Assembly (NCBI GenBank): GCA_030704615.1
Contig: CM060732.1
Span: forward strand, 16,740,001-16,804,000
Direction: 5' to 3'
DNA from: Takakia lepidozioides
Taxonomy: Eukaryota; Plantae; Bryophyta
DNA: 64,000 nt
Made by a program: the position numbers and the translations under genes. Positions 1,961 through 60,794 of the stretch are shown here, in pieces. The stretch's first letter is position 1. Each line of letters starts with the position of its first letter. The notes under the pieces were generated by a model. That model was not told the DNA's origin, did no database searches, and saw only the letters and a list, made by a program, of their open reading frames with translations.

Positions 1961-2103
1961 TCTCTACCGGACGACATTGGTGGGCATAACGTGCCAAAAA
2001 GTGGACCGCAGGCGAAAAACTCTAAGTTGAGTGATTGATTAGACAAAAAAAACGCGAAAAATGAATCAAATTTGTTGATGAAGGGTCGATACGGGCGTCT
2101 GTT

Positions 2104-25800: not shown

Positions 25801-26591
25801 GCAGAGGGAGAAAACTTATGAAGGGGTCTGGTATGCACTCCTTTACGGGGTGAGTGCATACCACACTCACTCCATAAGGGACTGCCATATCAGGGGCTGG
25901 TTGGTGGGTTCCCTCTCTCTCCCTCTCTCTCTCTCTCCCTCCTTGAAATTGGCCAGTTTTATCAGTGTTAATTTCCTGTTTTTTCATCCATACCGGATGG
26001 ACTCTGGCAGTGTTTTCACCCGTCCTATAACAATTTTTCATCCATATCGGATGAACTACCAGGGTGGACCCTGAATTACCTCTAAGATGAGTCTCTGATT
26101 TTTCATTCCTCTTTTATTGACTTTCATCCGTACCGGATGAGTCACCATAGAATGAGAAATTACCTCTGTGGGGGTTGCCACTGACATCCTGTTTTTCCAT
26201 CCATACCGGATGAAAAATGCCAGGATATTAATTTTTTCATTCCTCTTTTATTGCTTTTTTCATCCGTACTGGATGAGGCATTTTTGGGATGTTGAATTAC
26301 TTGTGAGGATGTAAAACCGTTGCCTTGGATGTTATTTCCTGTTTTTTCATCCTACTGATGGATTTTTTCCAACGGATGAACTCAATGATGTTTTCTTTCA
26401 TCTGAACCGGATGGTGTGTACAACTTTTGATGGCCCTAGACTAATAATAATTACCCCTAATTATGGTTAATTAAGGTGTAAAATCCTAACCCCTACCCTA
26501 AAACCTACCGTTTAACCTAGCTATGGATGAAATCCGTCAGGTTTTAAAGGATGTGATGTCGATTGTTCATCCTGCACGGATGAAAAATCGG
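22807..26591 (+). mobile_element. Unclassified element: about 380-bp direct repeats (22807-23184 and 26212-26591) flanking a decayed ORF
   Basis: Near-identical repeats from aaaaatgccaggatatta to ggatgaaaaatcggg, rich in TCATCC..GGATGA hairpins. No TG..CA ends, PBS or PPT. Confidence 0.7.
23902..25518 (+). pseudogene. Unassigned protein family, copy 1
   Basis: LETLALEDW, HMMWHPLANINLLAPIS, PLRTFYYKLCD, NHKSQLLNWHRPYIRCNC, WFDH and MEAACEFA are shared in order with 62527-63985. Confidence 0.75.
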
Positions 26592-27876
26592 GAACCCATC
26601 GTTCGTTGTTCAAATGATTTTTTATTGCTTTTAAACATTGCGAGTATGTTGGACATACCTTATTTGAGGTACGTGTTGAGTATAAGGTCAATCAAAATTG
26701 AATCAAATGGTGAACCCATCGTTCGTTGTTCAAATGATTTTTGGTTGCTTTTAAACAGTGCGAGTGTGTTCCAGACATACCTTGTCACAGTCTCCTCTCA
26801 AGTCAACCTAAATTGGTTCAAAGGGTGAACTCATTGTTCCTTAGTGAAATGATTTTTGATTGCTTTGAAACATTGCGAGTGTGTTCGACATACCTTATCA
26901 GAAGTACCTGTCGAGTATCAGGTCAATCAAATTTGATTGAAAGGGTGAACTCATCGTTTGTTGTTCAAATGAGTTTTGATTGCTTTCAATCTTTGCGAGT
27001 GTGTTCGGCATATCTTGTCAGAGGTACCTGTTGAGTATCAGGTCAATCAAAATTGATTTAAAGGATGAACCCATTGTTCACTGTTCAAATAATTTTTGAT
27101 TGCTTTTAAACATTGCGAGTGTGTTGGACATACCTTGTCACATGCTCCTCTCAACTATCAGATCAATTAAAATTGGTTCAGAGGGTGAACTAATTGTTCG
27201 CTGTCCAAAAAAATTTTGATTGCTTTCAATCTTTGCAAGTGTGTTGGACATACCTTGTCAGAGGTACGTGTTGAGTATCAGATCAATCAAAATTGCTTTA
27301 AAGAGTGAACCCATCAATCACTATTCAAATGATTTTTTATTGCTTTTAAACATTGTGAGTATGTGTCAGATGCTCCTCTCAAGTATCAAGTCAATCAAAA
27401 TTGGTTCAGAGGGTGAAGCCATTGTTCGCTGTTCAAATGATTTTTTATTGCTTTCAATCTTTGCGAGTGTGTTGGACATACCTTGTCACATGTCCTCTCA
27501 AGTATCAGGTCAATCAAAATTGATTCAAAGGGTGAACCCATCGTTTGCTGTTCAAATGATTTTTGATTGCTTTCAATCTTTGCGAGTGTGTTGGACATAC
27601 CTTGTGAGAGGTACCTATCGAGTATCATGTCAATCAAAATTCAAAAGGTGAACCCATCGTTCACCGTTCAAATGATTTTTGCTTGCTTTTAAACATTGCG
27701 AGTGTGTTGGACATACCTTGTCACAGGCTCCTCTTAAGTATCAGGTCAATCAAAATTGGTTCAGAGGGTGAACCCACCGTTCTCTGTTCAAATGATTTTT
27801 GATTGTTTTCAATCTTTGCGGGTGTTTGACATACCTTGTCAGAGGTACCTATTGAGTATTAGGTCAATCAAAATTA
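26592..27876. repeat. Satellite, about 120-bp unit, about 11 copies
   Basis: ggtgaacccatcgttcg..caaatgattttt..ggacataccttg..ggtcaatcaaaattg repeated with a period of about 120 bp. Confidence 0.95.
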
Positions 27877-28908
27877 ATTCTGTCAAGTTAAATAAACACA
27901 GTGTGAAACTAACTAGAATAAATCTAGTTATTTGTATTTAACACTTGGATTTAGTTCAAGTGTTAAGTCAGGTGTCAAGTTTAGTTTGACACTTGAACCG
28001 TCTTATCTTCACGAGAGCGTCAGTCGTGCGGCTCATCTCTCTCGAGTTGAGCCTGCACGACCGAGCTCCTTCACTGTTTAGAATCTGAGTGTGCTTATGC
28101 AGGGAGAATAGGTTGTTGTGGGGTGGAGTCCCCATAGCTTGGGGTGCCCCTGGCTCGACTACTATTTTAAAGAGTGATGGTGTTGTGTTTTGTGTTTCTC
28201 TGTTATCAGACAAGTGAGGTTAGTTCTTTCAATCACTCGAGAGAGATGAACTTGCATCTGTGAGTGCCAGAGGTGAATTTAGTTTTAGCACTTGTGGTTT
28301 TTGTTTTGAAAGTAAGAAAAGAAAATTATGGTGGTTTGTAGATTATGTTTGTGACAAGGCTGGTGGAGCAGCAGGATGATGCGCAAATGTAAGGAAGAAT
28401 AGGCTGTTGGTTTTGTTTTCCTATTATGGGTGGTGCCGAGCTCGGTTTTTGAGGAGCGTAGAGGGTTGTCGTAGAATCTGGTATTCATGTCGGCTCCACA
28501 AGCTTGGCATCTCGTGTTATACCGGAGCTCGATGGACAGGGCCTCGTTCGGTGGTCCGAGGTTGCGATTGTTGCTTCAGAAGTGAGTCCTTATTTGGTGC
28601 TTTGTCGAAGTTTCCTGCCTCAGCCATGCTCTCGAGTGTTGTTTGTGTCCATTAGAGCACGGATAGGCACGCCGTTGGACTGGATGCAGCCTTACCGGCA
28701 AGTAATTTCGTTCGCCCAGTGAAAGGAAAGTGGGAACCAGTGCATCGAAGGCGGGGTCACTGTCCAGATTTACCGATCGTGCCGGACAATGAATTCGTGG
28801 ATTGGCCCTGGACTGAGCATGCGCACATAGCAATGCAGGGCCAACGCATCAAAGGCACTAAGCCCTAGTGGGGCAACAGGCAAGAGACTGATGAAGTAAG
28901 ATATGCAA

Positions 28909-29603: not shown

Positions 29604-31475
29604 TTCGCTCTGCTTTCCTCACACCCAAGTTCTTTCCTGCACCGGCAACAAATCTCTGTTGTTGCCGACAGATGGAGAGAGACATGGAGAGACGGAGGTG
29701 GGTAGCCCTTTCCGAGCCCACTAGATGGCAAAGAAGCTAGGGAGGAGCGCGAGACGGCCAATGCAGGCGTTGCCGAGATGCCTGACGCTGCACAGGCCAT
29801 CGCCATCGCCACCGCCACAACCATACACCAGAGCTCGAGAGTCGTGGTTGGAGCAGAGCACAGATCCTGGCTGGAGCAAAGTAGCTCACTAAGAGAGCAA
29901 GCCTGTGGTGGTGCGCCTGTAACCACAAATGAAACCTGGGAACAGCTTTTAATGGCGAGAACGTTTTGGTGTAAAAAAAAAAAAAAACCTTTTTGATCTA
30001 ATTTAAATGATTTAGAGCCTAATTGGTCATATCTTTGTTAAATGGACTCCGTTTGACTCAGTTTTTGGGGGGATAGCTGCAGAAAGGGGAAATCTACCTA
30101 TCTAGACGTGGTTTTAGTTTTTTGGACTCTGCTAAAAATCTATGGATTTTTTTGAGTGTGAGTGTGCCATGAAAGATCCACAATTCTGTTTCTAGAACCT
30201 GTTGTGGTCTATATGAGAGACAAATCTGTGGATGTCCTCCTTGTATGGCTGGGGGAAATGAGGACGTAATTGAAGGGCAGGTCTCTTCTCTTAGCCTGTG
30301 CACACAAGGGGACTAGATTTATGTTTTCTAAGGGGCTCAAACTGATTTGAGTGGAGAGCAGGTGGACGAGTTGATTGCATACTGGGAGTCAAGCATTAGC
30401 AATAGACAACACACTGCTGTAGTTGGCGTTGAGGGCCTCAATATTGCTTTGGACAGTCAGAACTCTGTTGGAGCAAGCAGTTCTGCAGCTGTAGGTGAAA
30501 TACCAAAGTGGGTGGAAGCTAGGCTTGGAACACAGCCAAAAACAGCCCCGGGGACCAAGGTGTTCAGCCACAAGGCCGTGGTGTACTGGAGCAAATGAGT
30601 AGGAGCTACACAAGTTTTTGCAATCAGACATGGTTGCAGCCGGACACGCTCTGCACAAGACAACCACGAGCGGGGGTTCATTAGCAATGACAAGTTTGTT
30701 CTGCTTGAAGGAGATGCAGTCATTCGCAATGAGGACACCCGCAACCGTCTCAAAGCTTTCGAGTTGAGAGACTGTCAGACCCTACCTTTATTTTCTTTAG
30801 TGTTCAGTGAGCGGGAGATAGGGGAGTATTGCTTTGTCTCTACCTGGCAGAGAGAGGAGGAGGGTTGGTTAGAGCAAGCTACTGTAGCTTGGGATAAGGT
30901 CAGTGGCAAGTTTCTGGACATAGATATACCTCCTACACCTTACCATCATGCAGAGAGAGGCACTTTGAGAGAAGTCTGACAGTTGATAGCATAGATCAGG
31001 ATTACATCTTGCTTGGTCGGGCCTCTATTCTTCCCCTCCATTTCTTTACTATTTTCATTACTTTGTACTTGTAGTTGCCAAAGCCTCTCTTGGTGGAGGC
31101 CAGTCAGTCCGGGGTTTTGGGCTGGGATATTCTACAGGATCAGCACTGCAGATGGATTTTGGTGTGGGGGTGTTGATGTTTTGATTTCTTGTGTTTGGAT
31201 CCCCCCCAACACCTACATACTTGACTGTGCGCCATGTTGGTTTTGTGTGGGCACTTGCTTTCATAGGAATTAGGCCGGATTTGATCACCGGTGTTGTCGG
31301 TGGTGAGGCTGGAGTGATGACCAGCAAGACCACCAGTGTTTCTTCTATGGTGAGACTGGGTTGATGACCAGCCAACCATAGGAGTTCGTGCGGTGGATGC
31401 AGGTGCAGGTGCCCTGAGCCACTGGGATATGACCCTTAAACTACAACAGGTGCCCACCCGTGTCACTATTAGAAT

Positions 31476-34400
31476 TAGTACTAGAGCCTTATAGTGTCAC
31501 GTGGGGGAGGTGCACATTGTGAGTGTCATCACGGAGTTACCCAGGGGTTCTGAGGGGAGTACGGCTACAAGCAGTAGCAATGAGAGTGGGTTCACCAGAC
31601 GAGGTGTTTGTTTCAGACCACCTTCACCTCCACCCTCAACTAGTGCAGAGTCAGACACAGACTCGGAGGCTTCATCAATAGGTGTGCAGTTTCATTCGCC
31701 ATTGATGTGGGACGACATGGAGGAGATGTATGGAGCTACCAAGGGGCCTCGTAGGTACTCTGGAGCTGTGGGCACAATTGAGTTGGATGACTTTATCCAG
31801 GAGTTCGACAGCTAGTGTGATTTGCAACAGATGCCCAATCCACAGCTATTCACCCCATTCATGGCGTGGAAGGGACTGTTCCAGCATTTGGAAGGCCCGC
31901 CTATAGATGATTACCACAAGTTCAGGCGAGGACATGAAGCAGAGATTGAGGAGTGGAGGATGTATTGGTCACCTGACTACGTCTCCATTACTCGAGGCAC
32001 GACGCGACCAGTAACTGCATCAGCACCAATATCTCCCACTGCCAGCACTAGTATTGGAACAAGTAGTGCCGGTACTTCTGCAGGTGGTACCAGTTCAAAA
32101 GGTGCTACTACTCCTCATGCCACGACTACAACACATGTGCCTAGATTCAACCCGGTGGAGGAGTTCTTCCAGGAGTTGCGGAGGAACTACCAAGGTGTAC
32201 GGACAGAGAAGCTGCGAAGTTTGCAAGACTTCCAGCGCAAACCCAGTGAGAGTTTGCGAGAGGCCTACACTCGTATGAGGCGCTTGATAAGTGTGACCCA
32301 AGGGGTTACTGAAGCTCAGGCAATCTAGTTCTGGTATGGAATTTTGGACAAGGAGCTCAGGAGAAGGGTGCGGAATGCAACCCTGTTACAAGCAGCCCAA
32401 CCCACATTAGCAGATGTGTTTCTGCTGGCTGAGCGGATTGAGCTCAACATGGTGGAGGAGCGAGTTGTTACCATTGGATTTGGCAAGGACATGCCTGCAC
32501 GAGGCACAGCTGCCAGCCCACAGGCACAAGGGACTGCCCAACAGCGTGGTCAGGGGGACAAGGTTTCCCAACCCAAATTCCATGGAGCTTACAGGGGACC
32601 TCAGGTGCAGAGGCCAGTAGCTTCTTTTGCAGGCCAATAGCAACCAGGGGTGGTATGTTGGACATGTGAAGGACCCCATGTCAAGAAAGATTGCCCAGAG
32701 AGTGGCAAAGGGCTGGCACAAGCACAACCTGCACAGTTGCAGTGTGGGCATTGTGGCAAGTATGGGCATAGAGATGCCCAGTGTTATGACTTGCACCCCG
32801 AGTTGCGGTGAGGCCAGTTCCAAGGGAACAATGGTGGCCGAGGGCAAGGTGGAGCACCTCAGAGAGGACGAGGTGGTCAGGCACGAGGTGCAGGACAAGA
32901 GCAAGCACAGTATGGCCAAGGACGTGGAGGTCAGGGCATTGACCAAGGTATGGCCAACCGGCTTCAGCAGCTAGAGCAAAGGCTTGCTGCCATGGCCACA
33001 GCTCAGGTGGTACCAGCTCCAAGACTTGAGGGTCCACCTCCTGTTCCTCCTCAGCAGCGTCATCCTGACGGAGGAGACATGGGAGGCATGGGATTTATGT
33101 GTGGGGCAGCACTACCACTAGTGCAAGTGGAGTCTGCTGCAGCCGTCACTCGAGGAGCAGCACGAGTTCCTGAGCCACGAGGTGTAGAGGTGGAGTTGGA
33201 TCCACAGCGTGGGGAGGCAAGCCGTCAGGCTAGGTTGCCTCAATCATTCATCTTGGCAGAGACAGTGTTGACGCTATCCATGGCATCTAGTTCTCGCCCG
33301 ATGGATACCGAGGCGGATGTTTATTGTGCCATTGGGGAGAGCTACACGTGCTGCACTGACACCTGCTGCCAAGGCTAGTGCAGCCAGTGTGTTGTTGGGG
33401 GCGGCCACCTCTGTGTGTCAGGCCCCACTGTTCTTGGCAACCATGATTGCGACGCCGGGGGTAAGACCAGCTGCAGTGTTCAGACTAGCAGCAACACTCT
33501 GTGAGAGTGGGGAGGTCACTTCATCTTCTGCGGAGTTAGTGGAAGGTGTAGTGGCAGAGGGATCCTCGGATTTGAGGGTCAAGACTGCCACGGCTGCGCC
33601 ATGGCAAGGTTGACGGAGCTGCCAGCTAGACCAGCCTTTGAGCGCGCCATGGTGACACCTGGAGTTGTCTTGTTAGACAACCAGGATGGCATTTTCTCTT
33701 TGAGTGGACCGGCAGGCAAGAGGTACCGGCCACTGCAGGTCTTGTTGGACTCGGGAGCTCAGCCACTAATGTTGGGCAAAGCCGCTATTGCAGGTTTGGG
33801 CCTCATGGAGGCGGATATGGAGCCTTGTCCCTTCCAGATATAGACATCTCTGGGAGGATCAGAGCAGGCTCGGGGCATGACACGGCGTGAGTTGGTCATT
33901 AGACTACAGCCGGATCATCCTATAGATGGCTCAATGATGCGAGCCAAGGCCATTGTGACAGACCGGTCTCTAACGATGTCCTCGTTGGTGGGGCAGTGTT
34001 GTATCCCATGGGCTTCACCCTGGATTTTTGGGAGGAGTCAGCATCCTACAGGCCTGGATGGCAGTCAGGGGATGGTCGTCGTGTACAGCTCCTTGTGACA
34101 TTAATTGGGGGTGTTGCTGCTACCCAACGGGGCAAGATGCCAACACTAGCAGCCTTCACAGTTGCAGTTAGTTGGCCTGGAGAGTTGCTGGAGGGCAATG
34201 CCCATGTAGAGGATGTGCCACCTCCAGCAGAGCAGGATGACATGCATGGTACGGCGGAGTTGCCTGCCATGGTTGCTCACACTCTAGTGGGGTACGAGCA
34301 AGGATTTGCAGCAGGCTGCTGATAGACAGGTGCAACAAGCCTAGGTAGAGGCCTTTGTATCGTCAGGAGAGGAGGAGAGTGCGGTGATTGCACTAGAACC

Positions 34401-36960
34401 ACCTCAGTTGTCGCCATTGGACACCACACCTCTTGTGTGGCAGTGCCCGGATGAAGGCATATGCCTTCTGGACTTGTTTGGCGGGATTAGCACTGGATTG
34501 GCAACAGTACTGCAGGCAGGTGTACGAGTTCGACGTTACCTATATGTGAAGAGGGATGAGACTGCACGACGCGTCTCACTGCGCCATGTTGCTCAGTTGG
34601 TGCAGCAGTACCCTGATTTGTTGCCAATGTCTGCAGTTCGTGGATACCAACAAGCCTTGCCAGTAGACATCTCCTTGCTAGGGGCGCATGATTTGGAGCG
34701 GTTTGGCCCTATTCACTTAGTAGTTGCAGGTTGGCCCTGCCAAGGGCTTTCATCAGCTGGGTATGGCAATGGGTTACAAGACTCAAGGTCACGCCTGTTT
34801 TGGGAGATGTTGAGGGTCCTGCGCTATTTACAGCTTTAACAGACAGACTCTCCGGCATATATCTTGGAGAATGTGCCATTGATGGGTGATTCTCGGGCCA
34901 AGGTGATGGCCAGTGTACATCAAGTGTGGTCTTGGCTTGGATCAGCAGTGTTGCTGGATGCAGCTGCAGTGGGGTCACGGGCTCATCGCCCACGACTATG
35001 GTGGACCAACTTGATGTCACATGCATTGCTCAAGCGTGCATTTGATGGGGTGCAGCGGCCACCCAACCTGACGGTGGATAGCATTTTGGACATAGGGAGG
35101 CAGTCTCAGCGTGTGAGACACGATTACCGATCACCTTTGGCAGTGGTCAATAAGGTGGGTCACCCACGAGCAGCATTGCCTACACTGCTCAGCTTTCCAG
35201 GATCTCATGCTTTCCGGGATGGTGGACCTGGCCTCTTATGGGATAGCCAGTTGCAGCAGTTAGTGGAGCCCAATGCTGACGAGCGTGAGCGGGCGATGGG
35301 TTTTACCACTGGTACCACGGCGGTGCCATCTCTTTCTGAGGCATCACGTCGTCAGGTGTTGGGGCAAACAATGGATCTCAATTGCTTGACCTGGATTATC
35401 AGCTTGGCTATGGCTGAGCAGCGCAGAGTACGGAGTATATTTCCCTTTATGGTCTCCCTACCTACCGAGACGGTACAGGCAGCAAGTGGGGGCGAACAGG
35501 TGAGAACCACGAGGTGCAGGCCGCATCCATGGCACACGTGGGAGGTGCTCGAGGTTCAAAAGGAGTTGGCAGCCAAGGCGGCGGTGATGGATGAGGTTGG
35601 GGATTTTTCTCGGGTTGAGGAGGTCCTCAAGGATGGGATGATGGGGCAGGATGAGACATTATCACTGACAGAGCAGGTAGTGGTCACTGCTCAAGAGGTT
35701 GCAGCATAGCAACCACGGGACGCGTCTTCTACCTCTAAGTCTGTTGGACTCAAGGTTGCAGTCACGGAGGACAACTGGGAACCTAATGTTGGACCCATAG
35801 TCACCGGAGGAGAGAGACGACGTATACGGCAGTTCTTGAGGGCTTACAGGAACTGCTTTGCCTTCAGTTTGAAGGACTTAGGAGCACTGGAGGGTCAAGA
35901 GATTCGCATTGAATTGACTACTGACACGCCAATCTTTCGGAGACCCTATAGATATAGTGACATGGAGAGGTCCTTGATTCAGATGAGAACTCAAGACCTT
36001 TGGGAGGCTGGTTTGGTGGAGCTATCTGGGGGAGAGTATGCTTCAGCCACAGTGATGCCAGCCAAGAAGGATGTCTATGGCAATTGGACGGAGAGACGTA
36101 TGTGCGGTGATTACCGGTCTGTAAATCGTCAGACCAAGTCCGATAGGTATGCCATGCCGACACCAGAGGAGATCTTTGATGCCATTGGGCATGCCAAGGT
36201 CTTTAGCACTTTGGATTTACGATCCGGATATCACCAGTTGCCGATCAAGGAGGCGGATAAGCAAAAGACGGCATTCTGGGGGATCAATGAGCATGGGAAG
36301 GATTGCCTATACCAGTGGCGGTTCTTACCATTTGGGCTTAAGAACGCTCCGGCAAAGTTTCAGAGAGTCATGGACAGGATTCTAGCAGGGGTGGAGTTTG
36401 TTCGGTGCTACATAGATGACATCATCATCTTTAGTGCTACGGTGGAGGAGCATGAGAGACACCTCCAGGTGGTATTTGAGCGCTTGAGGGCGCACAGATT
36501 GAAGTTACATCCGGGGAAGTGCAAGTTTTTCTACAACCAGATTGAGTATCTGGGTCATATGATATATCCTGGAGGATTGGGGGTACAGCAAACTAAGGTA
36601 GAGGCCATTGCACAGATTCCACGACCCACGAATGTGAGCCGAGTTCGAGCTTTCATGGGGTTGGCAAACTATTATAGACGGTTTGTCAAGGGATTTAGTG
36701 CCATTGGCTCTAACCAAGCTGACCAAGGTGGACCAGGAGTGGCAGTGGGAAGATAAGCAAGAACGAGCTTTCCAAGAGCTCAAGGCGAGGTTGACCTCGG
36801 TGCCCATCTTGAGACGACCTATCAAGGGGCATCCTTTTCAGCTGCATACAGATTGGAGCATGCTGGGGCTTGGAGCGGTGCTCACACAGGTGCATGATGA
36901 GGGAAGAGAGTTCGTAGTGGCTTATGCTAGCCGCTCGAACAATGCTGTAGAGACTAAGTA
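31476..36960 (+). mobile_element. Gypsy LTR retrotransposon carrying a DNA methyltransferase (gag-PR-DNMT-RT-RH), decayed and interrupted at 36960
   Basis: Degenerate PBS tagtactagagcc at 31476; gag with two Zn knuckles (CWTCEGPHVKKDC, CGHCGKYGHRDAQC); protease LLDSGAQ; DNMT; RT ([28 protein letters not shown]); RH HTDWS. Confidence 0.9.
34450..35430 (+). pseudogene. C5-cytosine DNA methyltransferase domain, DNMT3-like, inside pol
   Basis: Motif I LDLFGGISTG, IV AGWPCQGLS, VI ILENV, VIII AHRPRLWWTNL, IX ERERAMGF, X RRQVLGQTMD. One in-frame TAA at 34837. Confidence 0.92.
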
Positions 36961-37214
36961 TGTCGCGGCCCTTTGCCTTAAGGGCAGGGGGTCGGGACAC
37001 AAGAGGGGCTGCCCCTGTGGTGGGGGCAGTGGTAGCGATAGGTATGGGGGGCTGAAGCACCCTTGAGTGCCCAAGGCACTCAAGGAGGCGGAGGCGCTCA
37101 CTAGGTGGAGCCCCGCACACCGGGTTGCGGTGGGGGGGGGGGTCCACAAGGGGTGGTGGTAGCTTAGCGGGACTTAGTGGAGGGGGGGAGCTTACCGAAG
37201 TGAGGTGCGTGACA
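36961..37214 (+). repeat. 5' LTR of the chromovirus
   Basis: TG..CA ends, followed by a tRNA-Met PBS; matches 42708-42928. Confidence 0.95.
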
Positions 37215-40200
37215 CTTGGTATCAGAGCTTAGAGTTCAGTACGCGATCGTCCTTCGGATTAGCCTCATCATGGGGTCGGGCAAGCCAAAGCGAAAGCGGA
37301 AGATGATGATCCTGGTGAGCCCGATGGGGGCGACGTGTCACTGAGGCGGCCATTTGAGGAAGCGATGCATGTTTCCAAAAACAAGGCCGCTCAAGAGCGG
37401 GAGGAATCTGAGGAGTCGGAGCCTGAGGAATCCCTGAGAGCTCCGACCGACCAACAGATGCCTCCCATGCCGACAGCCTTTTGGGAAGGGTTGTTGGCAC
37501 AATTTGGTGGAACGTTGAAAGACGTATTGAAGGCGGCTAATGCCACTTCCACTAAGGCAAAGTTTAAGGTGAAGCCGAAGGAACTCGGCACCTTCAAGGG
37601 CGTCCGAAATCGGAAGGCACTCAACATCTGGCTCTTGGAGCTGGAGCAGTACTTCCGGGCGGCCAAGTTGAGTGACGAGGATTGGGTGGAAGTGGCTCCC
37701 ACCTATTTGAGGGGCTATGCTCAACAATGGAGAAACGCCTTCACGACCGAGGTCCAAGCCCGGAAACCTTGAACTGGAGTGGGTTCAAGGAATTGATGAA
37801 GAGGCAGTTTGTGCCCCTCAACGCGTCCTGGCTCGCCCGGGACAAGATGAGGAATTTGAAGCAAACAGATGACTTTCGGGGATATGTCTAGGCTTTCAAT
37901 GTGCTGTAGCTCGAAGTCGCGGACATGGCAGAACCAGAAATGGTCTTCAACTTTGTGGCGGGACTGGCCCCATGGGCCAGGCGGAAGTTGGAGGAGAAGC
38001 CACCTAAGACTTTGAATGAGGCAATTGAGAGGGCTGAATGTTTCTCGGATGTCCCTAAGGGTGAAAGACAAGGCCGTACGGAGCTGAACCACAAGAAGAC
38101 CCGGCGGGAAGGTGACTCCTTCCGACCGGAAAAGAAGTGGGATAGGCCACGCGGCGACAATGGCACGTGGAAATCGAAGGGAGGGCCTTCACAAGTCAAG
38201 GCGGCACCCAATGCTTCGAAAGGAAAAGCGGGTGGAGCGGCTTATGGCGGACAAAAGGCGACCTTTGATGGAGTGTGTTTCAATTGCGGGGAGCCCGGGC
38301 ACATGGCCAAGAAGTGCACGAAGCCCCGGCAATTGAACATGACTCGGGCGACCACAGAGCTGTCGGAAGATACCATCAGTCACTTGGTGGAAGCAATGGT
38401 CGCCAGGACTTGCAAGGTAGGCAAATTTTCTTTTTGAGTTGTATCAGGAAACTGGCGCCTTACGTAAAGGCAGTCAGTTATTGTTCGTGGATGGGATAAT
38501 ATCCGGAACTAACGTGTCGTTGTTGGTGGACACAGGAGCGTCGCACTCCTTCATGACACCGGCAACGGCACAAAAGCTGGGACTCCCGACAAGTGACGTG
38601 GGGGCCTCTATTGAGGTGCGTTCTGCCAAGGAGAACCGCAATTGGTGACAAGGTTGGCGTTTGATGTTCCTCTTCAACTGGGAGTTGGGAGGGACGTGAG
38701 AACTTCACCATCTGCGAGATCGATGGAGTGGATCTCATTTTGGGGATGACCTTTTTGAGCAAATCCGGAGCGGTCATAGATGGCCGCAAGAGAGTAGTCA
38801 CGCTACCATGTGGGAATGGTGGCGAGGTCTTACGAGTGTCGGAAACGCCCAAACCTGTGGGAGGGCGAATAAACCTCCTGTCAGCAAGGGAGTGGGCCGT
38901 GGAGGAGGCACACGAGCCCTTGTTTTTGCTCTATATTAGAGAAGTGAAGGGAGAAGGCGATGGGGAGCCGAGCCCAGATTGGATCAAGGGGATTTTGGAG
39001 AAATACCAGGATGTGATGCCGGAGGATTTACCAAGCGGCTTGCCACCGCGAAGAGGAGTTGACCACAAGATTGAGGTGATACCGGGATCGGAACCGCCTG
39101 CCAAGGCGCTCTACCGGTTGAGCCACAGAGAGTTGGTCGAGCTGAAGACTCAGCTCAAAGATCTAATGTCAAAGGGGTACATCCGGCCGAGTAAGTCACC
39201 TTACGGAGCCCCGGTGCTATTCGCAGACAAGAAGGATGGGACGCTGCGGATGTGTGTCGATTACAGGGCTCTGAATAAGGTGACTATAAAAAACCGGTAC
39301 CCTTTGCCAAGGATCAACGACCTTTTCGATCGGTTGGCTGGAGCGAAGTATTTCAGCCGGATCGATCTGCGCTCCGGCTATCATCAAATTCGAGTGGCGG
39401 AAGGAGATGAGGAGAAGACCGCGTGCAGGACAAGGTATGGTTCATATGAGTTCTTGGTGATGCCTTTTGGACTCACCAACGCTCCCGCAACCTTTAGCAC
39501 GCTGATGAACAGCCTTTTCCAGGAGTGGTTGGATGACTTTGTGATCGTGTACATCGACGACATCTTGGTGTATTCAAAAACAAAGGAGGAGCACCTGGAG
39601 CACCTCAAAAGGGTGTTCCAGAAATTGCAGGAAGGGAAGCTGTATGCCAAAGCTTCAAAGTGCGAATTTGGGGTCACAAAAGTGGAGTTCCTGAGGCATG
39701 TGATTACACAGGATGGGATCAGAATGGATGACAGGAAGGTGAGGGCAATCTTGGACTAGGAGCCTCCGACTTCGGTCCCGGGAGTGCGATCCTTCCTAGG
39801 ACTCGCCTCCTATTACCGAAAGTATGTGAGAAATTTTGCCAAGATCGCGGGGCCGCTGTCAGACCTTCTGTGTAAATCCAAGGTCTGGGCATGGAACACC
39901 TTTTGTGGCCAAGCTTTTGTTGAATTGAAGCAGCGGATGGCGGAAGCTCCAGTCTTGAAAATCCCGGAGTTCGATCGTCCGTTCGAGATTCATACAGATG
40001 CGTCGGACTTCGCGATTGGGGGAGTATTGATGCAAGATGGACGTCCAGTGGCTTACAAAAGTAAGAAACTGAATGAAGTGGAGCGACGGTGGCCGACGCA
40101 TGAGAAAGAGATGAAAGCGGTGGTGCACTGTCTTGAGCTTTGGCGCCACTATGTTGGTTCCAACCCAGTGAAGGTGTTCACGGACAATGTCACGGTGAAG

Positions 40201-42707
40201 TATTTTGCCACGCAGCCCAAGTTGTCCCCAAAACAACTTAGGTGGCAAGATACTTTGGCGGTGTTCGACGTGGATATCCAGTACAAACCGGGACGGGACA
40301 ATGTGGTGGCCGATGCTTTAAGTAGAAGCAACAGCTCTTGTTGGTGTACAAGGGCGAGACGGCGCTCCAAAGGAAGATTCGGAAGGCTTGCTGGAAGGAT
40401 GAGCTGGCGAAGTCCGTGATGCATGACTTGAGGATGGGGATTAAATCGTAGTTCCACTTGCAAAATGGACTGCTCCGGTATAAGCAAAAGCGTCTCTACG
40501 TGCCGAAGGGAGGGATCAGAGATAGCCTCTTGAGAGAATGTCATGATAGCCCACTTGCGGGCCACGACGGAGCCAAGCGCACTGCGGCACTCTTGAAGAA
40601 AGAGTATTTCTGGCCCAAACTGAGGGAGGAGGCAGAGGAGTATGTCAAGACATGCACCGCATGCCAACAAAACCGGAGCGAGTACCAAAAGCAAGCGGGG
40701 CTATTACAACCCTTGCCGATTCTAGAGGGGACTTGGGAAAGCGTCTCGATGGATTTCATGACTGCTATGCCGCTGTCAAAAGGATTCGATGCAATCATGG
40801 TGGTGGTGGATAGGTTCAGTAAAATGGGCCATTTCATCCCCACCAAGGAGACGGCAATGACGCAGGAAATAGGGCGACTTTACTTCGCCCACGTCTTAAA
40901 GCATCATGGAGTCCCGAAGGATATTGTCTCGGACCGCGATCCAAAGTTTACGAGTAAACTTTGGAGGGCATTTTGGAAGAAGATGGGGACGAGGCTGAAG
41001 ATGAGCACCGCCTTCCGACCTACGACTGACGGCCAAACGGAAAGAGTGAATTCCGTAGTGAAGCAGATCTTGCGGAATTACGTGTCGGCAGACCAAACAG
41101 ACTGCATGGAACACTTAGACGCGGCAGAGTTCTGTTATAATAACACAGAACACTCCACAACGGGAGTTTCCCCTTTCGTATTGGTCTATGGAAAAGCACC
41201 TCTGGTGCCGACAAGTTGGGCCGCCCAGGACGTTGAGGAACCGGCAGTAGCGGCGGTACTGGAAGAACGCGAGCGTTTGTTGAAGCTCGCAAAGTACAAC
41301 ATTGCCAAAGCTAGGAAACGGTATGAAAGGCAGGCGAATCGGAAGCGGAGGGAAGTGAAGTTTGAGGCAGGCACGGAGGTCTGGTTGAACATCAAGAATT
41401 TCCGACTACCTCCGGAAGTGAGTCCAAAGTTTGTACCTCCGTATGCGGGACCCTTTTGCATCCGGAAGGTTATGAATGAGGATGTGTATGAATTGGAGCT
41501 GCCGGCAAACAACAAGGTGCATCCAGTATTCCACGTCTCCCTTTTGAAGCCTTACTTCAAATATGAAGCGCGTCCAAATCGGCATCAAGTGTTGCGTCCG
41601 CCACCTGTGCTGTTGGATCATGAAAATGAACCTGACTACGAGGTGGAGGTAGTGCTTAAGTCGAGGAGGATCACGAACCGAGAAACGGAGTATCTCGTCA
41701 AATGGAAGGGCTATCATCATGTGGAGGCATCTTGGGTGCGTGCCTCAGAAATGGGAAACGCATCCGAGGCGGTTGCAGTTTTCGAAGGGCGACCTCAAAA
41801 GCGGAAGAAGCGTTGATGGGGACATCAACCTTGGATCATAGGGGAGGAAATGCATGCTTAGCCCGGCTTAGCTAGCTGAGGAATCAAATTGCAAAAACTT
41901 GTTATAAAGGAAATGGGTTGCAAATGTTGTGCGTCCTATTTTGTTTGGAATGATGATGCATGGTGTGGTTGGCTAGTGTGTAGAATGCATGCTAGCTTAC
42001 AAAAGTGGGAGAGGTAAATTGGGTTAATCGTGTGTTTGCGCAGTGCCAAAATCGGGTGACTTCCATCCAAGGGGCAAGGAAACATGCGCCTTCTTTGGGA
42101 GTTCACGTGCTAGTGCGCACCTGGCGCGTGCGCGTACTATAACTGCGCTACCGAGGTGGTTGCCTTGTAGTGCGGGCTAACGCGGAAGCTACGTGCTTCC
42201 GTTCACGTACTATAATCGTGTAGCCTTGGGACGAAGTCGTAGTGCGGCTTCGACGTGTTCCCGTACCTCAGGCCAGCATTCCAAGACGGACCCAAATGTA
42301 GTGATTGGGGCGCACGGTTGGTTCAAGGTTATCTTCCTAGTCAAACGGGGGTTCGAGGTGAACCCTTGCGCAAAGGTGATGCCAAAAGCGGCATCATGAG
42401 CGATCGCAAGCAATGTTGTTGCAGTAAGGCGATTCGATCCTCAGGGAGGATCGTTCCTTGGCCTTGAAGTAGGCCAAGAAGAGTGCACTGGGAGGAGCTT
42501 GAGAGGCTCCACCCCTGGCCGGGACTTGGAGGAAGTCGGCCGAACTAGCCAGTGGAGAGTAGAGTCAAGTATGGGGTTTGGTTCTTTGCCATGGGACGCC
42601 ATGGCACGGAAACAAACTCCTTGATGTGGGATGCCACAACTTGGATGTTCCTTTCCACAAAATGGACAAGCCGATGAGGACATCGACTCCCTGTTGGTAG
42701 GGGTGTG

Positions 42708-42928
42708 TGTCGCAGCCCTTTGCCTTGAGGGCAGGGGGTCGGGACACAAGAGGGGCTGCCCCTGTGGTGGGGGCAGTGGCAGCGATAGGTATGGGGGGCT
42801 GAAGCACCCTTGAGTGCCCAAGGCACTCAAGGAGGCGGAGGCGCTCACTAGGTGGAGCCCCGCACACCGGGTTGCGGTGGGGGGGGGGCTCCACAAGGGG
42901 TGGTGGTAGCTTAGCGGGACTTAGTGGG
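42708..42928 (+). repeat. 3' LTR of the chromovirus, last ~30 bp missing
   Basis: About four substitutions versus the 5' LTR by eye; match is lost after gacttagtgg. Confidence 0.92.
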
Positions 42929-43979
42929 GGTGGCATAGGACTCACCCTGGGGCGGAGACCTCGTGGTGGGAGTCGTGGGGAGTCTTGGGACTCATCACGT
43001 TCCATAGTTCCACCTCAACAGCATAGCAGTGCACATTCTTCTGCATGGGTGACCGTCATAGCTGGGAAAATCGGAATCAAGGAAGAAGTTTCAGTGAATG
43101 GCCTACCTAATACAGTTATACATCTCAAGTGACAGAACTTTCTTTTGCAAAGTGCACTTTCTTGGCCAGTCTCTTAGAGTTTGTAGTCGTCACTATTACC
43201 GGTGAAGGAAAATGTATGGGGGTGGTAGTTAAAACTTTGCAAGCAATGGAAATAGATGGCTCAGCTGGACTCAGAAGGGAAAACCTCTTGCAGGAGTGGA
43301 TATCAGCATGAACACTCATTTGAAAACTGTGAAAGTCACTCTGAAAGGGAAGAATCTTCTTGCATTTGAGAATCTCAGCATCCATGGCAACAATATCCGA
43401 TACTACATTCTCCCAGACAGTTTGAATCTTGACACACTGCTGGTTGACTGGTCTCACTGATCCGCACATGTTTGCGGAAATGCTGGAGCCCGAGCTCATG
43501 TGGTGGGTGGGGCAAGACTCACCACGACTCATCACCGGGAGTCGAGGGTGTTCGTGGTGGTTCGCCATAAAATGGCATGGTTGTTTGTGAAACCCCCGCG
43601 GACAGCTACAGAAGTATATATAGGGAGTAGTAACCCCGAGAACTGTGCAAGCCCGTTGGTGACCAAAAGCTAGTGAGTAAGCGAGCGAGCCGGAAAGCGA
43701 CCAAAGAGTGGGGAGCTGTTCCGGACTGCCAACTACCAAATGGAATTCCGCTGGTCCCAAATCGTTGGAGGGTTCTTTGGGAGATCAAGGGGGGGACCGT
43801 TATGTCCCGGTGAGCAGCCGAAGCTCCAAGCAGCACGTTTGCGTCCGGAAGCAGGTGCCATTCAACACAAGTACGCAAGGGGATTCTTGCGAGGTATCTT
43901 GTACATTGGGACAGGGGGGTCGAGATGCAATCACACCAGACCATACGAGAGGATATCAAAGAAGTACAATCCTGCGACA

Positions 43980-45813
43980 ACAATCCATTTCGGAGGGATT
44001 GAACGTGACAGCGAAGAGGGCGTTAGATAAGAAGTGGGCAACGTTTTTCTATGAGGCCAACATACCATTCAACGTGGCACGGCTCCCATCATTTGTTTCA
44101 GCTGTGAGAACAACTTCGGAGTCAAAATGCACGTATACACCACCTCCTTACAATGCTCTACATACGGGATTGTTGGAAGAGGCCATGACTGGCCTTTCAA
44201 AACGAGTAACAGAACGAACCGGGGATTCATTGCAAAAATATTGAAGTACATTATGTGCCGATGGTTGGAGCTCAGCAAACCGACCATTATTCAACATCAT
44301 GCTCGTATGTCCAGCTGGGGAACAATTTATAGGAGCTATTGACTCAACCAGGGAACGGAAGGATGCACGTTATCAGTTTCAGGTGCTATCGAAAGCCATT
44401 GACTGTGTTGGACCGGAGAAAATTGTGCAAATTTGTACGGACAATACCTCGAACATGAGAAATATGGCCCAGTTACTTTTGGCTCAATACCCTCACATGT
44501 ATTCTCAAGGATGTTGTGCTCATATCCTCGACCTACTGTTAAAAGATTGGGGAAAAGAACAATGGGTGAAAGACCTTGTGAAGCAGGCCAAGTCTGTTGT
44601 GAAGTTCATCTGAAACCACCACATGCCTTTGGCAATATACATGAGGCACGAACCAAAATACAGCCTAAAGAATCGAGGAGAAACTCGGTTTGCCACCAAC
44701 TTCCTGATGGTGGACATGTTGGTGACTGTGAGGTCCGCGCTCGAGCACACTGTTATTGACCCACAGTGGGTAGCCCACGTACGGACGTTGTGGGACTCTC
44801 GGAAGAACAAGTCACTGAGCAAAAGTCAAAAGGTCAGAAAGACCATTCGATCAGATGATTTCTGGTCCAAGTGCGAGATTTTTGTGCACATGGTGGAGCC
44901 AACCCTTGTTATATTACGGGAGTTCGATGGAAAGAAACCAGTTATGGGAAAGGCATGGTTGCTATTGAGGTACCTTCAGCAACATGCATTTTCATTGAAA
45001 GACCCTCCATTCTCACTAGATGCAGAGTTGGCGAGAAGGGCCGAGGCGGCTTTTGTGAAACGATGGAAAATGGCCACTACAGACTTGCATGGTGCAGGGG
45101 CATTGTTAAATCCATTTCTATTGGACAACAACATGTTAAGAGATGATGTCGATGCGAAACTGGGATTGATACGGACACTCATGAAATTGGCCCCTCCAAA
45201 TCAAGGGGAGAGAGCTATATCGGAGTATCAAAGTTTCTCGGATCGTCGTGACCCTTTCCACAACCTTCCGGATCCAAAAGAACTTAACATGTAGCCGCAT
45301 GAATGGTGGGATTTGATTGGCGCCGGAGCAAGGACATTGGCCCCTATCGCAAAGGCGTTCTTGCTCCGTGTCATCCTGTGAACGTAACTGGAGTAGTTAT
45401 TCATTCGTGCATAGCAAGATTCCGAACATGTTGCATCCGGATAGGGCCGAGAAATTGGTATATGTGTATACCAATTCACGGCTTTTACGGGCTCAAGCGG
45501 GGGATGAAACTGCAGCATGGTACGAGAAGAATTTGCAATCTGAAGACTCAGCTTCTGAGGCCTATATAGCAAGTGACGATGCCGGTAATTCTACTAGTTC
45601 GGATAGCTCCCAAGCGGGAGATGCTGCAAAGGGCAATGAATATGATGCACATGGTTTCAACGAGGACGATGCTACAATGCCTTTGATGTTTAATGACTTA
45701 CTCGCGGATGATGTGGCGCATCATGTGGCTCATATTGGAGTCACCTGCACTACAGTGCATGATGCGGACCACCACCCGCATGTGCATCCTCTTCCGACAT
45801 TGCCAAGCAGTGC
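43980..45813 (+). pseudogene. hAT transposase (DUF659 plus dimerisation domain), with stops and frameshifts
   Basis: FFYEANIPFNVA, DGWS, QICTDNTSNM, CCAHILDLLLKD, ETRFAT, SSCERNWSSYSFVHSK..AEKLVYVYTN. Confidence 0.92.
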
Positions 45814-54920: not shown

Positions 54921-55530
54921 TGTTGTGCACCTAAGCATCGTGCCACAACATACATCGCTGTCTACCAGACATTCCAAGAACACAATCCTAGAAAGCTATG
55001 CCACAATGAAAGAGATGAGAAATGGAAGAAGTGGAAGACAATGAAAACTCTCTAAGCATGAACCAATCACACTAAGAACAAACCCTAGTCATTCCAAGTG
55101 AAATCCACTCTATCACATAAACTAAGTCAAGCCAAGGGCACCTTTGCTAAGGAATCCACCCTACAAAGCCCTCAACACACTCCCTCTCAATACCTAGAGC
55201 TATGGAGGTGAGAGAGGCTCATGGAGGCTCAACTACAAGAAGATGAGGCCTCCTCAACCCTCACCAGGGGAAAACCCATCCCCATGTCCCAAGTGAGCTG
55301 GCTCAACACCTCACTTGACATATGAGACCAAATGAAGTCCCAACACACAAAATACAAATATAAATATCCAAAATGTCCTAATTAACTAGAAGTAGGTAGA
55401 TCTAGTTAACCGTGACTCAAAACAATGACAGCTATCGTGCACCTAGCATCGTGTCACAACATATATCATTGTCTACCACACATTCTAAGCACACAAGCCT
55501 AGAAAGCTATGCCACAATCCCCCCCCCCCC
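54921..55530 (-). repeat. LTR-like segment with PPT
   Basis: Minus-strand TGTGGC..CAACA (55516-54921) preceded by a G run (55519-55530). Internal ~80-bp duplication at the two ends. Confidence 0.55.
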
Positions 55531-56653
55531 AGCTGGTGATTAGGTCCCTCTAACACCGGATAGCTAACAAGTACTGATCCTAATTGGATAATCGCTTGGT
55601 CTTCAACCGCATATGTCCCAATTTCTAAAGGATATGGATCAAGAGGCCGGGTATTAGGAGAGCCCCGTCGTTAGTCGCATGCCTACAATCCATGATTTTC
55701 AATTGAGTATCCATGGCGTGGGGCTCCCACCAGCTAGACCTTGGATCACTTGTCAACTTCACCATTGTCATGCCCACTACCTCTGTCCAAGGCATCGTGG
55801 ATACAACCATTCTCCGCTAGGAACGTCCTCAAGTGATGGTGTAAAACATCCCATGTGTCACCCCCTTGAGCATTTGTCACACACCAACATGGTTGCGGCA
55901 CAACTAGCATGCAATGCAAACCTGTAGGTATCACTGCAAGGTTGGGATCTATCCTCCCATCCCATGTGGAAGGTGACATGGCGCATGATTGCGCACATGG
56001 TCCTTCCATACCATGCCATCTGGACCCTCCAAAATCAACACTCTTGAAGGCAACACCTCTCATACCCGTAGAATCACACGCCCTGCTATGACATCTAAGG
56101 TCGTTGGTGCTGTCACTACTGCAAATGGGGGCCGGGGAAGGAGGGGGGGGGGGGGGGGGGTGGGTAGCAACGCCAGTCCGCGCCCCGACGACGGGCGCGG
56201 CACTGAGCCTGTGATGCCACCCCCGTGGCCCCTCCTGCAATGCCCCGGTGCAATCCGATGGGCCCAGCGTCTTTGCGTCGCAAACCTGACGGAACCCGAC
56301 GGACCCAGCGTCGGGGCCAGGCTGCGACGCCAGAACGTCGCACGCCGGTGTGATGGGGAAGAGGGGGCCCCCAAGGGGCGACGACATGGTGTCGGTGGAG
56401 CCGTCGACTGCGACGCCCCGCCGTCGCAAGGTGGCATGAAGGGGAAGAGAGGGGCCCACCCTCGCCCCCTGTTGCGACAGCGGGGCGTCGCAGGAGGGGG
56501 CTTTGGGACGGCCGCTCCCTGTTGTGACGGAAGGGGGTCGCAACGGGGGGGTGGGGGGGTGCTTAAGTAAGGTTTGAGACAACGGGCGGGGAGAGGGGGT
56601 GGGGACGGGAGATGGGACAGGCCCCCCCCCACCTTCTTTATTATTATTTTTTG

Positions 56654-59700: not shown

Positions 59701-59729
59701 ATAGGTCGAAGAAGAAGGTGCCCTCACCA

Positions 59730-60790: not shown

Positions 60791-60794
60791 GCTC

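Follow-up and report, generated by a model that had tools for sequence, protein, structure and literature searches.

A decayed Ty3/gypsy copy in a moss, very probably of the KnitGypsy-Dnmt3 kind, carries a DNMT3-type methyltransferase ahead of a conserved stop codon

A cytosine methyltransferase lying between the protease and the reverse transcriptase of a broken retrotransposon raises the question of whether the enzyme was captured by chance in a single copy or belongs to a whole element family, and what it might do there. The element occupies about 31-37 kb of the window, i.e. the whole stretch of 64,000 nucleotides of Takakia lepidozioides DNA that was analysed. The locus is a dead Ty3/gypsy copy comprising gag, protease (PR), a DNMT3-type methyltransferase, reverse transcriptase (RT) and half of an RNase H (RH), with the following features.

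30083..31704, forward strand: 5' leader (sister-contig cover from the 30000-30243 bin; one contig diverges before 30083; left edge approximate)
31705..32448, forward strand: gag (ATG at 31705 or 31717; tblastn match of Marchantia P0001 starts at 31717; Retrotrans_gag E 5e-4, below the cut-off)
31813 and 32326, forward strand: premature stops in gag
32656..32784, forward strand: two CCHC zinc knuckles (nucleocapsid), seen in the translation
33598..33960, forward strand: aspartic protease (catalytic D of LLDSG at 33748; premature stop at 33841)
34453..35424, forward strand: DNMT3-type C5 cytosine methyltransferase (PF00145, PDB sequence matches, structure model, motifs)
34468 (I), 34735-34740 (catalytic PC), 34867 (ENV), near 34987 (RxR) and 35272-35376 (IX-X), forward strand: methyltransferase motifs
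35425..35706, forward strand: linker, open and evolving fast, that forms the C-terminal tail of the Gag-PR-methyltransferase frame
35707..35715, forward strand: UAG (35707-35709) followed by CAA-CCA, in agreement with the CAR-YYA readthrough consensus
35773..36708, forward strand: reverse transcriptase (RVT_1 E 2.3e-33; YIDD at 36409)
36710..36960, forward strand: 5' half of RNase H (RT_RNaseH_2 E 4e-20), truncated by the nested element
36961..42933, forward strand: nested, unrelated chromovirus-type Ty3/gypsy (integrase and chromodomain; right edge approximate)

A main frame from 31495 to 36756 contained gag, the CCHC knuckles, the protease-like motif, the methyltransferase and RT, and RNase H was reached after a short indel downstream of RT. 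The first-pass annotation had stated that these pieces share one frame apart from local indels; all 8 of its 8 named ORF starts were indeed in frame, and frame-shifting indels were located at about 33330-33570, 33960-34285 and 36705. The protease piece of the window alone gave no Pfam match, and the equivalent position in the relatives P0023, P0176 and P0229 is assigned to Asp_protease_2 or gag-asp_proteas. The copy is dead, as stated earlier, with 16 stops in its main frame. Stop density was 10.6 per 1000 codons in the methyltransferase and 6-13 in the other domains; being a product of post-insertion decay, it is uninformative on selection.

Two points concerning the extent of the copy had been overlooked. 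The element is interrupted at 36961 by the nested chromovirus, whose LTR copies are 97% identical over 229 nt and beyond whose insertion point the sister contigs carry on with different sequence, and family-like sequence extends upstream to the 30000-30243 bin in sister contigs. Since family sequence continues 5' of it, a tRNA-Met-like site near 31476 was dropped as a candidate primer site. Both ends of the copy are lost: the remainder of RNase H and the integrase (IN) were absent from the window 3' of the nested element, a search for the 5' A repeat (described below) and the primer site recognised neither, and blastn of the 5' leader against the A repeat of a second copy or the peat loci shown gave no match.

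The profile searches proposed earlier recognised RT, as listed above, and the methyltransferase (PF00145, E 2.6e-11, with stops read through as X), which contains one premature stop in the window copy, at 34837. Its motifs I, II, IV, VI, VIII, IX and X run in linear, unpermuted order, as had been claimed, whereas DRM methyltransferases are permuted. The closest solved protein was DNMT3A (E 1.7e-13), followed by DRM-type enzymes (1e-4 to 1e-3; DRM2 at about 1e-3 only) and M.HhaI (6e-4), thus upholding the assignment to DNMT3 rather than DRM. A structure model (pLDDT 96.5) showed the complete DNMT3 fold, with DNMT3A/B as best Foldseek matches (DNMT3A E 1.9e-20, TM 0.73/0.84). The catalytic Cys occurred in 61/61 related loci covering the site and the ENV Glu in 58/64, the glycines of motifs I and X were also conserved, and the acidic residue of motif II, Lys in the window copy, is Glu in 49/60 family loci. 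Comparison of the window and L004 methyltransferases returned a dN of 0.205 and a dS of about 2.0; between subfamilies dN was about 0.2-0.3 and dS about 1.5-2.9, with synonymous sites near saturation. Identity was higher in the methyltransferase (66-70%) than in the protease (51-59%) or gag (56%). Judged from these comparisons, the methyltransferase of the family is under purifying selection.

A land-plant Ty3/gypsy family with many copies carries this DNMT3-type, non-permuted, intron-free enzyme as a constant component. The copy number of the family in the moss-lineage host is very high, with 61,544 contigs from run X1 placed on 30000-37300. Relatives were found in Marchantia, Riccia, Calypogeia, Sphagnum, Closterium and Klebsormidium; Marchantia proteins made up 14 of the 35 long relatives listed, and the protein search also returned Calypogeia, Riccia and Sphagnum proteins. 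The metagenomes contributed 72 related loci. The domain order of the family is gag-PR-methyltransferase-stop-RT-RH-IN-PHD, a PHD finger standing 3' of the integrase in the complete loci and in a second copy within the window. In sister copies the domain is found at the same site, contrary to the one-off insertion considered earlier, and its position is the same in liverwort, moss and algal relatives; in 61 of 150 representatives the methyltransferase follows RT or RNase H (algal type, between RNase H and integrase). The suggested comparison of RT and methyltransferase trees gave the same main groups, with deep forks open and no host DNMT3 in the tree; the RT tree was a quick one rooted with the nested chromovirus only. 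A recent retrocopy of a host DNMT3 is unlikely, because synonymous sites are near saturation and the trees agree. Host DNMT3s were absent among the matches listed. No fern, lycophyte, hornwort or seed-plant name appeared among the 35 and 99 proteins listed (about 8000 candidates scored per search, most of the matches bearing no name), a weak negative, and viral contigs gave 2 pattern matches and no relatives.

The first-pass annotation had also described the methyltransferase as intron-free between PR and RT, inside an open pol. The first part stands. The second does not: the window methyltransferase and RT share one frame, but in the land-plant branch a conserved stop divides them. This stop, at 35707, is a family feature that had been overlooked, and not a product of decay. 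Over 35704-35715 no variant of 2% or more was present in four runs, including 719 X1 sister contigs in which the stop is invariant, with adjacent sites variable. It was present in 47/48 related loci (46 distinct linkers), compared with stops in at most 39% at any other of 1754 alignment columns, and unrelated linkers of 282, 324, 336, 348, 396 and 405 nt each keep the frame. Marchantia, Calypogeia and Sphagnum gene models terminate 90-94 residues past motif X. Since the stop is invariant among sisters and nearly so across loci, the methyltransferase ends the Gag-protease frame, and RT-RH-IN-PHD would likely come from occasional readthrough. The plant-virus consensus UAG-CAR-YYA (PMC2194720) is fitted by the window and 5/47 loci (L010, L052, L053/L054, L063); CAA-CCC, which misses its last base, follows 38/47 stops (main peat-moss subfamily). 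A stable stem 3' of the stop was absent in 5/6 contexts folded (z below -2 in 1/6). The junction is open in the algal relatives P0023, P0025, P0032 and P0035, and the stop is therefore not needed family-wide.

It is somewhat unlikely, though deserving consideration, that access to the RT-RH-IN frame depends instead on splicing that removes the stop from some transcripts, in the manner of Ogre, or on re-initiation from an ATG further downstream; in either case enzyme production would remain at Gag level. The TAG of the stop could serve as a splice acceptor, an ATG lies at codon 3 in the main peat-moss subfamily and at codon 5 in L048 and L052, and the gene models P0004, P0007, P0009 and P0016 join the methyltransferase to RT, although they are predictions. 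Both routes are opposed by the six bases after the stop, which are conserved and fit the readthrough consensus in several subfamilies. Introns are expected to be U-rich before the acceptor, whereas the sequence 5' of this stop is not, nor is re-initiation favoured in the window, L010 and L063, whose first in-frame ATG comes no earlier than codons 85, 48 and 117, respectively.

A search for intact multi-copy elements with paired LTRs had been proposed. The family proved to be multi-copy, but its complete copies (L034, L051, L059) are arranged A-coding-B-A-B, without paired LTRs. B-A-B ends recurred in other loci as well as in the window, where a minus-strand 3' end at 54921-56110 was treated as a second copy, apart from that at 31-37 kb.

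55518..56110, reverse strand: 3' end of the second family copy, with integrase tail, PHD finger remnant and polypurine tract (tblastn to PHD-bearing relatives)
54921..55517, reverse strand: split end repeats of the second copy (B 55517-55433, A 55430-55007, B 55006-54921)

The coding part of this second copy (55518..56110) showed 67-69% DNA identity to peat loci; its B copies are 89% identical, and a 2-nt spacer lies in a decayed palindrome between the first B and A. In the family the B-A junction forms a palindrome, ACA-NN-TGT; most peat loci have a CG adjoining it where B ends. A polypurine tract lies upstream of B. A 4-bp target duplication flanked 7/7 complete loci, 6 of them perfectly, and an rve-type integrase with D,D,E intact was found in L031 and L032. 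Primer-site bases were kept at one A-B junction (L039/L040, a single insertion). The bases following A were complementary to A position 166 at 13-14 of 14 positions in 3/15 loci, and the best self-primer match fell at A 162-166 in 9/15, the match not exceeding all controls in 8/15; L040, L043 and L050 had at least 10 perfect self-primer bases, with no tRNA primer site apparent. Split repeats and 4-bp duplications would fit a 2-LTR circle that is opened at its internal palindrome and so integrated. The A-coding-B form was also considered as proof of 1-LTR-circle integration and rejected: L017 and L058 have a common flank, yet one ends in A-B and the other in B-A-B, so that the short form can arise after insertion.

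With slightly better than even confidence, we interpret the locus as a dead copy of a land-plant Gypsy-DNMT3 branch in which the methyltransferase, placed before a leaky stop, is produced at Gag level, packaged, and methylates the element's own new DNA. The process would start from the domain order described, with a selected methyltransferase and its invariant Cys, and from a stop conserved across subfamilies; as the enzyme precedes a likely leaky stop, it is likely to be synthesised, and to enter the particle, in amounts like those of the coat protein. Self-primed reverse transcription, suggested by the peat-moss-type loci, would then give DNA with an LTR of B plus A at both ends. Integrated copies are bounded on either side by a palindrome internal to that LTR and have a 4-bp target duplication, and prior closure to a 2-LTR circle opened at the palindrome by the DDE integrase is quite probable. 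It is fairly likely that the packaged enzyme methylates the new DNA, most likely at CG; methylated in the particle, new copies would arrive pre-marked. Only tentatively, and with appreciable doubt, can all this be extended to an ancient green-lineage Ty3/gypsy clade, high-copy in bryophytes and represented in Marchantia, whose replication would depart from that of textbook LTR elements by combining Gag-level DNMT3 by a leaky stop, self-priming, a methylated 2-LTR circle and a PHD-guided integrase that cuts the internal palindrome, yielding permuted, pre-methylated copies.

CpG content was examined with regard to self-methylation. CpG at codon junctions was 12/281 in this element versus 58/345 in the nested chromovirus (p = 4e-7; control p = 0.85), and near-intact L010 had a CpG o/e of 0.31; strong CpG loss without CWG loss characterised both this element and L010. 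The main peat subfamily showed values of 0.54-0.71, above its flanks (0.39), and L048 reached 0.80. CpG depletion is thus not general across subfamilies and the evidence is mixed; some of the loss in the window copy may be decay after insertion. Differences among peat copies were highest at CHG (22.6%), then CG (16.6%), the pattern that host silencing would give.

The subfamilies that lack CpG depletion agree with an unlikely alternative, in which host chromatin would be the main substrate: released from Gag, the enzyme would methylate in trans the target site or copies already present, under the guidance of the PHD-bearing integrase, and would limit copy number rather than mark its own cDNA. 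The PHD finger of the complete loci and of the second window copy is in its favour, and host-benefit and chromatin explanations were raised by de Mendoza et al. (PMC5890265). However, the Gag fusion places the enzyme at the site of cDNA synthesis, the algal-type enzyme between RNase H and integrase would likewise be in the particle, and the strong CpG loss that spares CWG, noted above for this element and L010, also speaks against it. Very unlikely is a non-catalytic or other-substrate role, such as nucleic-acid binding, RNA methylation or the choice of palindrome cut by the integrase. In its favour, de novo methylation by the Klebsormidium enzyme was not seen in yeast, an outcome that the authors regard as inconclusive (PMC5890265), and motif IV reads G-W/F/Y-E-C-Q in 65 of the 150 representatives and the usual PC form in 45; the CG beside the palindrome could also suit such a role. 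The invariant Cys, the conserved ENV Glu and glycines and the full DNMT3 fold oppose it. A one-off capture or host-DNMT3 retrocopy in a single dead element, to which only the broken state of this copy with its 16 stops would point, is already refuted by the shared position across liverwort, moss and algal relatives; the near-saturated dS and the congruent trees also oppose it.

Self-methylation by a packaged enzyme can be addressed in a genetic model, since the Marchantia gene models Mp4g09160 and Mp8g17980 have an unbroken-looking Gag-PR-methyltransferase frame. The conserved stop predicts many enzyme molecules per particle, and the split ends point to circle integration as a regular route for an element with a DDE integrase. 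Element copies may also raise the number of DNMT3 genes counted in bryophyte annotations, and tools that rely on paired LTRs would miss them.

Among known systems, TMV (UAG-CAR-YYA), MuLV gag-pol and soybean SIRE1 use in-frame UAG readthrough (PMC2194720), as would the window and several subfamilies; here, however, the stop follows a captured enzyme, not gag alone, nor does it precede env, and the putative readthrough context has no pseudoknot-like stem in 5/6 cases. The putative self-primer resembles that of Tf1/Sushi and Tcn1, in which post-LTR bases are complementary to an LTR-internal site (PMC6317226), but it occurs only in peat-moss-type loci and without a chromodomain. Foamy virus and HIV-1 provide examples of a DDE integrase opening the palindrome of a 2-LTR circle (PMC1180852, PMC4372172); their palindrome is the LTR-LTR junction, giving a normal provirus, whereas here it would lie inside the LTR, so that the inserted copy is permuted, apparently as the regular route of the family. 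Canonical plant Ty3/gypsy elements (chromovirus, OTA, Phygy, Selgy) have paired complete LTRs, unlike this family, and DIRS/tyrosine-recombinase elements lack the DDE integrase that this family combines with a 4-bp duplication. The dinoflagellate SymbioDIRS-Dnmt3 and SymbioLINE-Dnmt are retroelements bearing C5 methyltransferases; SymbioDIRS-Dnmt3 shares the split repeats and performed de novo CG methylation in yeast, but these elements have a DIRS or LINE backbone with tyrosine recombinase or endonuclease (PMC5890265).

The closest system is KnitGypsy-Dnmt3 of Klebsormidium nitens (de Mendoza et al. 2018, PMC5890265), termed streptophyte Gypsy-DNMT3 in bioRxiv 10.64898/2026.05.21.726589, and membership in this kind is very probable. 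In both, a Gypsy element contains a DNMT3-type domain that lacks introns, is not permuted and is under purifying selection, and the order PR-methyltransferase-RT-RH-IN is common to the window family and KFL_009030040 (P0027). The split end repeats are shared as well: the legend to Fig. 4c describes DIRS-like repeats with Gypsy domains, and that to Fig. 1 defines the DIRS-like layout as A-coding-B-A-B (PMC5890265), the available portion of which gives no mechanism for it. Retrotransposons of this DNMT3-bearing kind were described from algae only in the literature searched, whereas the window family inhabits mosses and liverworts, at very high copy here. Sequence identity to the Klebsormidium element stands at only about 45%, and in the trees no sister relationship between Klebsormidium and the land-plant clade is resolved. 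The enzyme ends Gag-PR before the stop here, while it lies in the Pol ORF in KnitGypsy-Dnmt3 (PMC5890265), whose gene model is continuous there, and the PHD finger after the integrase is a further difference. The architecture is that of the published KnitGypsy-Dnmt3 kind; what differs is the land-plant branch and its conserved stop.

The main-frame translation of the Ty3/gypsy copy on the forward strand (approximately 30083-36960) contains gag, two CCHC knuckles, an LLDSG protease, a C5 methyltransferase and a reverse transcriptase (RT), and the ORF starts named in the first-pass annotation were confirmed to share one frame (8/8), apart from three short frame-shifted stretches. A profile search of this translation returned the Pfam families DNA_methylase, RVT_1 and RT_RNaseH. 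The copy had been described as dead and indeed carries 16 stops in the main frame. Its RNase H is interrupted at 36961 by a chromovirus-type element, and no integrase of the interrupted copy was found after this insertion within the window. The nesting is specific to the window copy, because sister contigs run on into other sequence at 36961. The primer site of the nested chromovirus is presumably of the tRNA-Met type, and its 5' LTR seems about 480 nt short relative to a sister contig.

Features of the window accompanying the methyltransferase-bearing copy
600-3610 and 26560-27900: tandem arrays with units of 96, 53 and about 120 nt, the first two with a palindromic core
8400-10410: older chromovirus copy sharing about 83% identity with the nested one, integrase region partly inverted
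19373-22088, reverse strand: host gene of the At1g29790-like SAM-methyltransferase family, whose relatives carry PF03141
29162-29570, reverse strand: intronless, frameshifted Tim17-family piece directly upstream of the element, probably a retrocopy and, we assume, OEP16-like
36961-42933, forward strand: nested chromovirus-type Ty3/gypsy, LTR copies 97% identical, with chromodomain
43233-43457, forward strand: short LSM-domain fragment adjoining the following feature
43680-45990, forward strand: decayed hAT-type transposase (DUF659)
54921-56110, reverse strand: second remnant of the methyltransferase-bearing family, with PHD finger, polypurine tract and end repeats B-A-B
59200-61550: nested inverted repeats flanking coding pieces that we take to be PPR-like

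The 19373-20296 part of the host gene matches Marchantia at 75% and Ceratodon at 72% identity, and a FastTree analysis of this one gene (21 rows) returned it as sister to a Ceratodon-containing clade with support 99, which makes an early-branching moss the likely host.

The assignment of the enzyme (34453-35424) to the DNMT3 type rather than to DRM was borne out, the best solved protein being DNMT3A (E 1.7e-13) versus about 1e-3 for DRM2 and M.HhaI. The predicted structure, built on a 50-sequence alignment, showed a pLDDT of 96.5 and a pTM of 0.93, and the 31 Foldseek matches listed, with a best E of 1.9e-20, belong without exception to DNMT3A, B or C. Among 72 related metagenome loci, the catalytic Cys is present in all 61 that cover it, the Glu of the ENV motif in 58/64 and the motif II Glu in 49/60, the latter being Lys in the window copy. 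Identity between subfamilies is 66-70% for the methyltransferase (48-52% against the distant locus L048), 60-79% for RT and 51-59% for the protease, with dS at or close to saturation. Among the best 150 of 256 representatives, motif IV reads G-W/F/Y-E-C-Q in 65 matches and the usual Pro-Cys in 45.

Codon-junction CpG is depleted in the window element compared with the nested chromovirus (12/281 vs 58/345, p = 4e-7; control p = 0.85), the window copy being the older of the two. CWG shows no such deficit (1.44 vs 0.77). The observed/expected CpG ratio is 0.31 in the near-intact locus L010, 0.54-0.71 in the main peat-moss subfamily, where it exceeds that of its own flanks, and 0.80-0.83 in L048 and the algal-type L065. 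The depletion in the window element, its intact CWG and the low ratio of L010 favour self-methylation at CG; the values of the main peat-moss subfamily, L048 and L065 speak against it. Residence in gene-like chromatin could explain the pattern of the window element, because a window exon of the host has this pattern too (0.44, 1.36). Methylation of the element's own cDNA is the role that we regard as somewhat probable for the enzyme.

The methyltransferase is not a one-off insertion, as complete related loci carry it between protease and RT in the order gag-PR-MTase-RT-RH-IN-PHD. The expectation of multi-copy elements with paired LTRs held for copy number, since 61,544 contigs of the sequencing run X1 were placed on 30000-37300 with every one of 30 bins covered, but not for the LTRs, which are absent as pairs from the peat-moss-type loci. 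Sister copies depart from the window at no fewer than four of its premature stops (40 rows of 790). The matches listed include 35 long related proteins, among them 14 from Marchantia (some may represent one locus in two assemblies), one from Sphagnum fallax, KFL_009030040 of Klebsormidium and two from Haematococcus; shorter ones add Calypogeia, Riccia and two further Sphagnum species, and Closterium and Scenedesmus were also found. In a representative search, 256 clusters scored an E of 1e-30 or lower. Among the best 150 of these, the methyltransferase lies beside another retroelement domain in 89, before RT in 6 and after RT or RNase H in 61. The commonest form among the representatives is a chlorophyte-type RT-RH-MTase-IN-PHD arrangement (Haematococcus, Scenedesmus and many metagenome contigs; for example L065, 1874-5090).

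The RT and methyltransferase phylogenies (36 and 30 rows of a chosen subset, the RT tree by a quick method) both group the window with Marchantia and peat-moss-type copies, as well as returning the RT-RH-MTase-IN type as its own clade. Between the trees, the window and L010/L053 exchange positions, and neither tree fixes the placement of Klebsormidium. The window element is genuine and dead, and belongs to a bryophyte-wide branch of an element kind already known from algae.

The methyltransferase had been placed between protease and RT in one shared pol frame; position and frame stood, but a conserved stop (UAG, 35707-35709) separates it from RT. No difference of 2% or more was found at 35704-35715 in four runs (719, 11, 1 and 1 contigs), with 22 differences listed elsewhere within 161 bases around it. 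Both sides of the junction are covered by 48 of the 72 loci, and 47 of these have a stop in frame at the corresponding position (39 TAG, 8 TAA), the remaining one having an indel there; in every other one of 1754 columns stop frequency is at most 39%. Most of the loci fall into one subfamily, but five other subfamilies with unrelated linkers retain both stop and frame. Over about 2060 codons, L010 is interrupted by two stops, one being that of the junction. Gene models of Marchantia, Calypogeia and Sphagnum end 90-94 residues beyond motif X (110 in the window frame). In the Marchantia gene models Mp4g09160 and Mp8g17980 the methyltransferase domain is naturally uninterrupted. A stop is missing from this junction in four algal-type proteins.

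The hexamer after the stop matches CAR-YYA, described in the available text of PMC2194720 as a plant-virus readthrough signal after UAG, in the window and 5/47 loci, while 38/47 show CAA-CCC followed by ATG. These 38 loci and the stop-less algal-type proteins count against readthrough. In the main peat-moss subfamily (L001 and most loci) the hexamer is one base off and an ATG lies three codons past the stop; this subfamily may have shifted to re-initiation. The TAG could instead serve as a splice acceptor, paralleling the Ogre-type regulation described in part of PMC6317226, but the conservation of the hexamer and its CAR-YYA matches speak against this. The stop at 35707 is likely programmed and leaky, and this layout would couple production of the enzyme to that of Gag and not of RT, whether by readthrough, splicing or re-initiation.

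In the peat-moss-type loci, repeat A (340 nt) opens the element and a polypurine tract followed by B (115 nt), A and B closes it. Target duplications of 4 bp flank 7/7 loci with both ends (6 perfect). The B|A join reads ACA-NN-TGT, palindromic in L002, L005 and L051, and the two palindrome halves are the first and last bases of the inserted copy; L065 has the same end palindrome after its PHD. In 3/15 loci, 13-14 of the 14 bases following the 5' A could pair with A position 166, and the self-primer match exceeds all 60 controls in 7/15, one of these at another position. End layout, target duplications, palindrome and self-primer match point to B+A as the likely true LTR, in which case a 2-LTR circle opened at one internal palindrome would yield A-coding-B-A-B. 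A ligated circle junction might retain primer-site bases, and such bases are kept at the A|B join in one insertion. Of 13 loci checked for the integrase D,D,E pattern, L031 and L032 retain it; in the other 11 the check was incomplete or revealed damage. L017 (single B, 13368-13482) and L058 (B-A-B, 7604-8171) share a flank, hence one insertion site, yet differ as A-B versus B-A-B. This suggests B-B recombination after insertion, so the short form can be a later product.

The claim that no land-plant lineage had been characterised agrees with our searches, in which the literature retrieved, poor in subscription journals, held no land-plant member, conserved stop or Marchantia gene ids, and its accessible parts no description of RT-RH-MTase-IN-PHD. 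The available portions of PMC6317226, PMC9516144, PMC6453930 and PMC11982613 do not mention DNMT3-bearing elements, and PMC6338049, in part, mentions such transposons for green algae and as absent from land plants such as tracheophytes. The available passages of PMC12344493 and bioRxiv 10.64898/2026.05.21.726589 cite PMC5890265 for streptophytes and name no land-plant host, although their supplements could list bryophyte sequences. Self-priming elements, as outlined in PMC6317226, resemble the present family in that bases after the LTR are complementary to an internal LTR site, and integrase cleavage of circles has retroviral precedent in the abstracts of PMC1180852 and PMC4372172. KnitGypsy-Dnmt3 of Klebsormidium nitens is described by de Mendoza et al. 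2018, in the portion available of PMC5890265, as having DNMT3 in pol and DIRS-like repeats. Judged from sequence, the bryophyte family goes beyond that account in the conserved, apparently leaky stop behind the enzyme and in its permuted, putatively circle-type ends with integrase target duplications.
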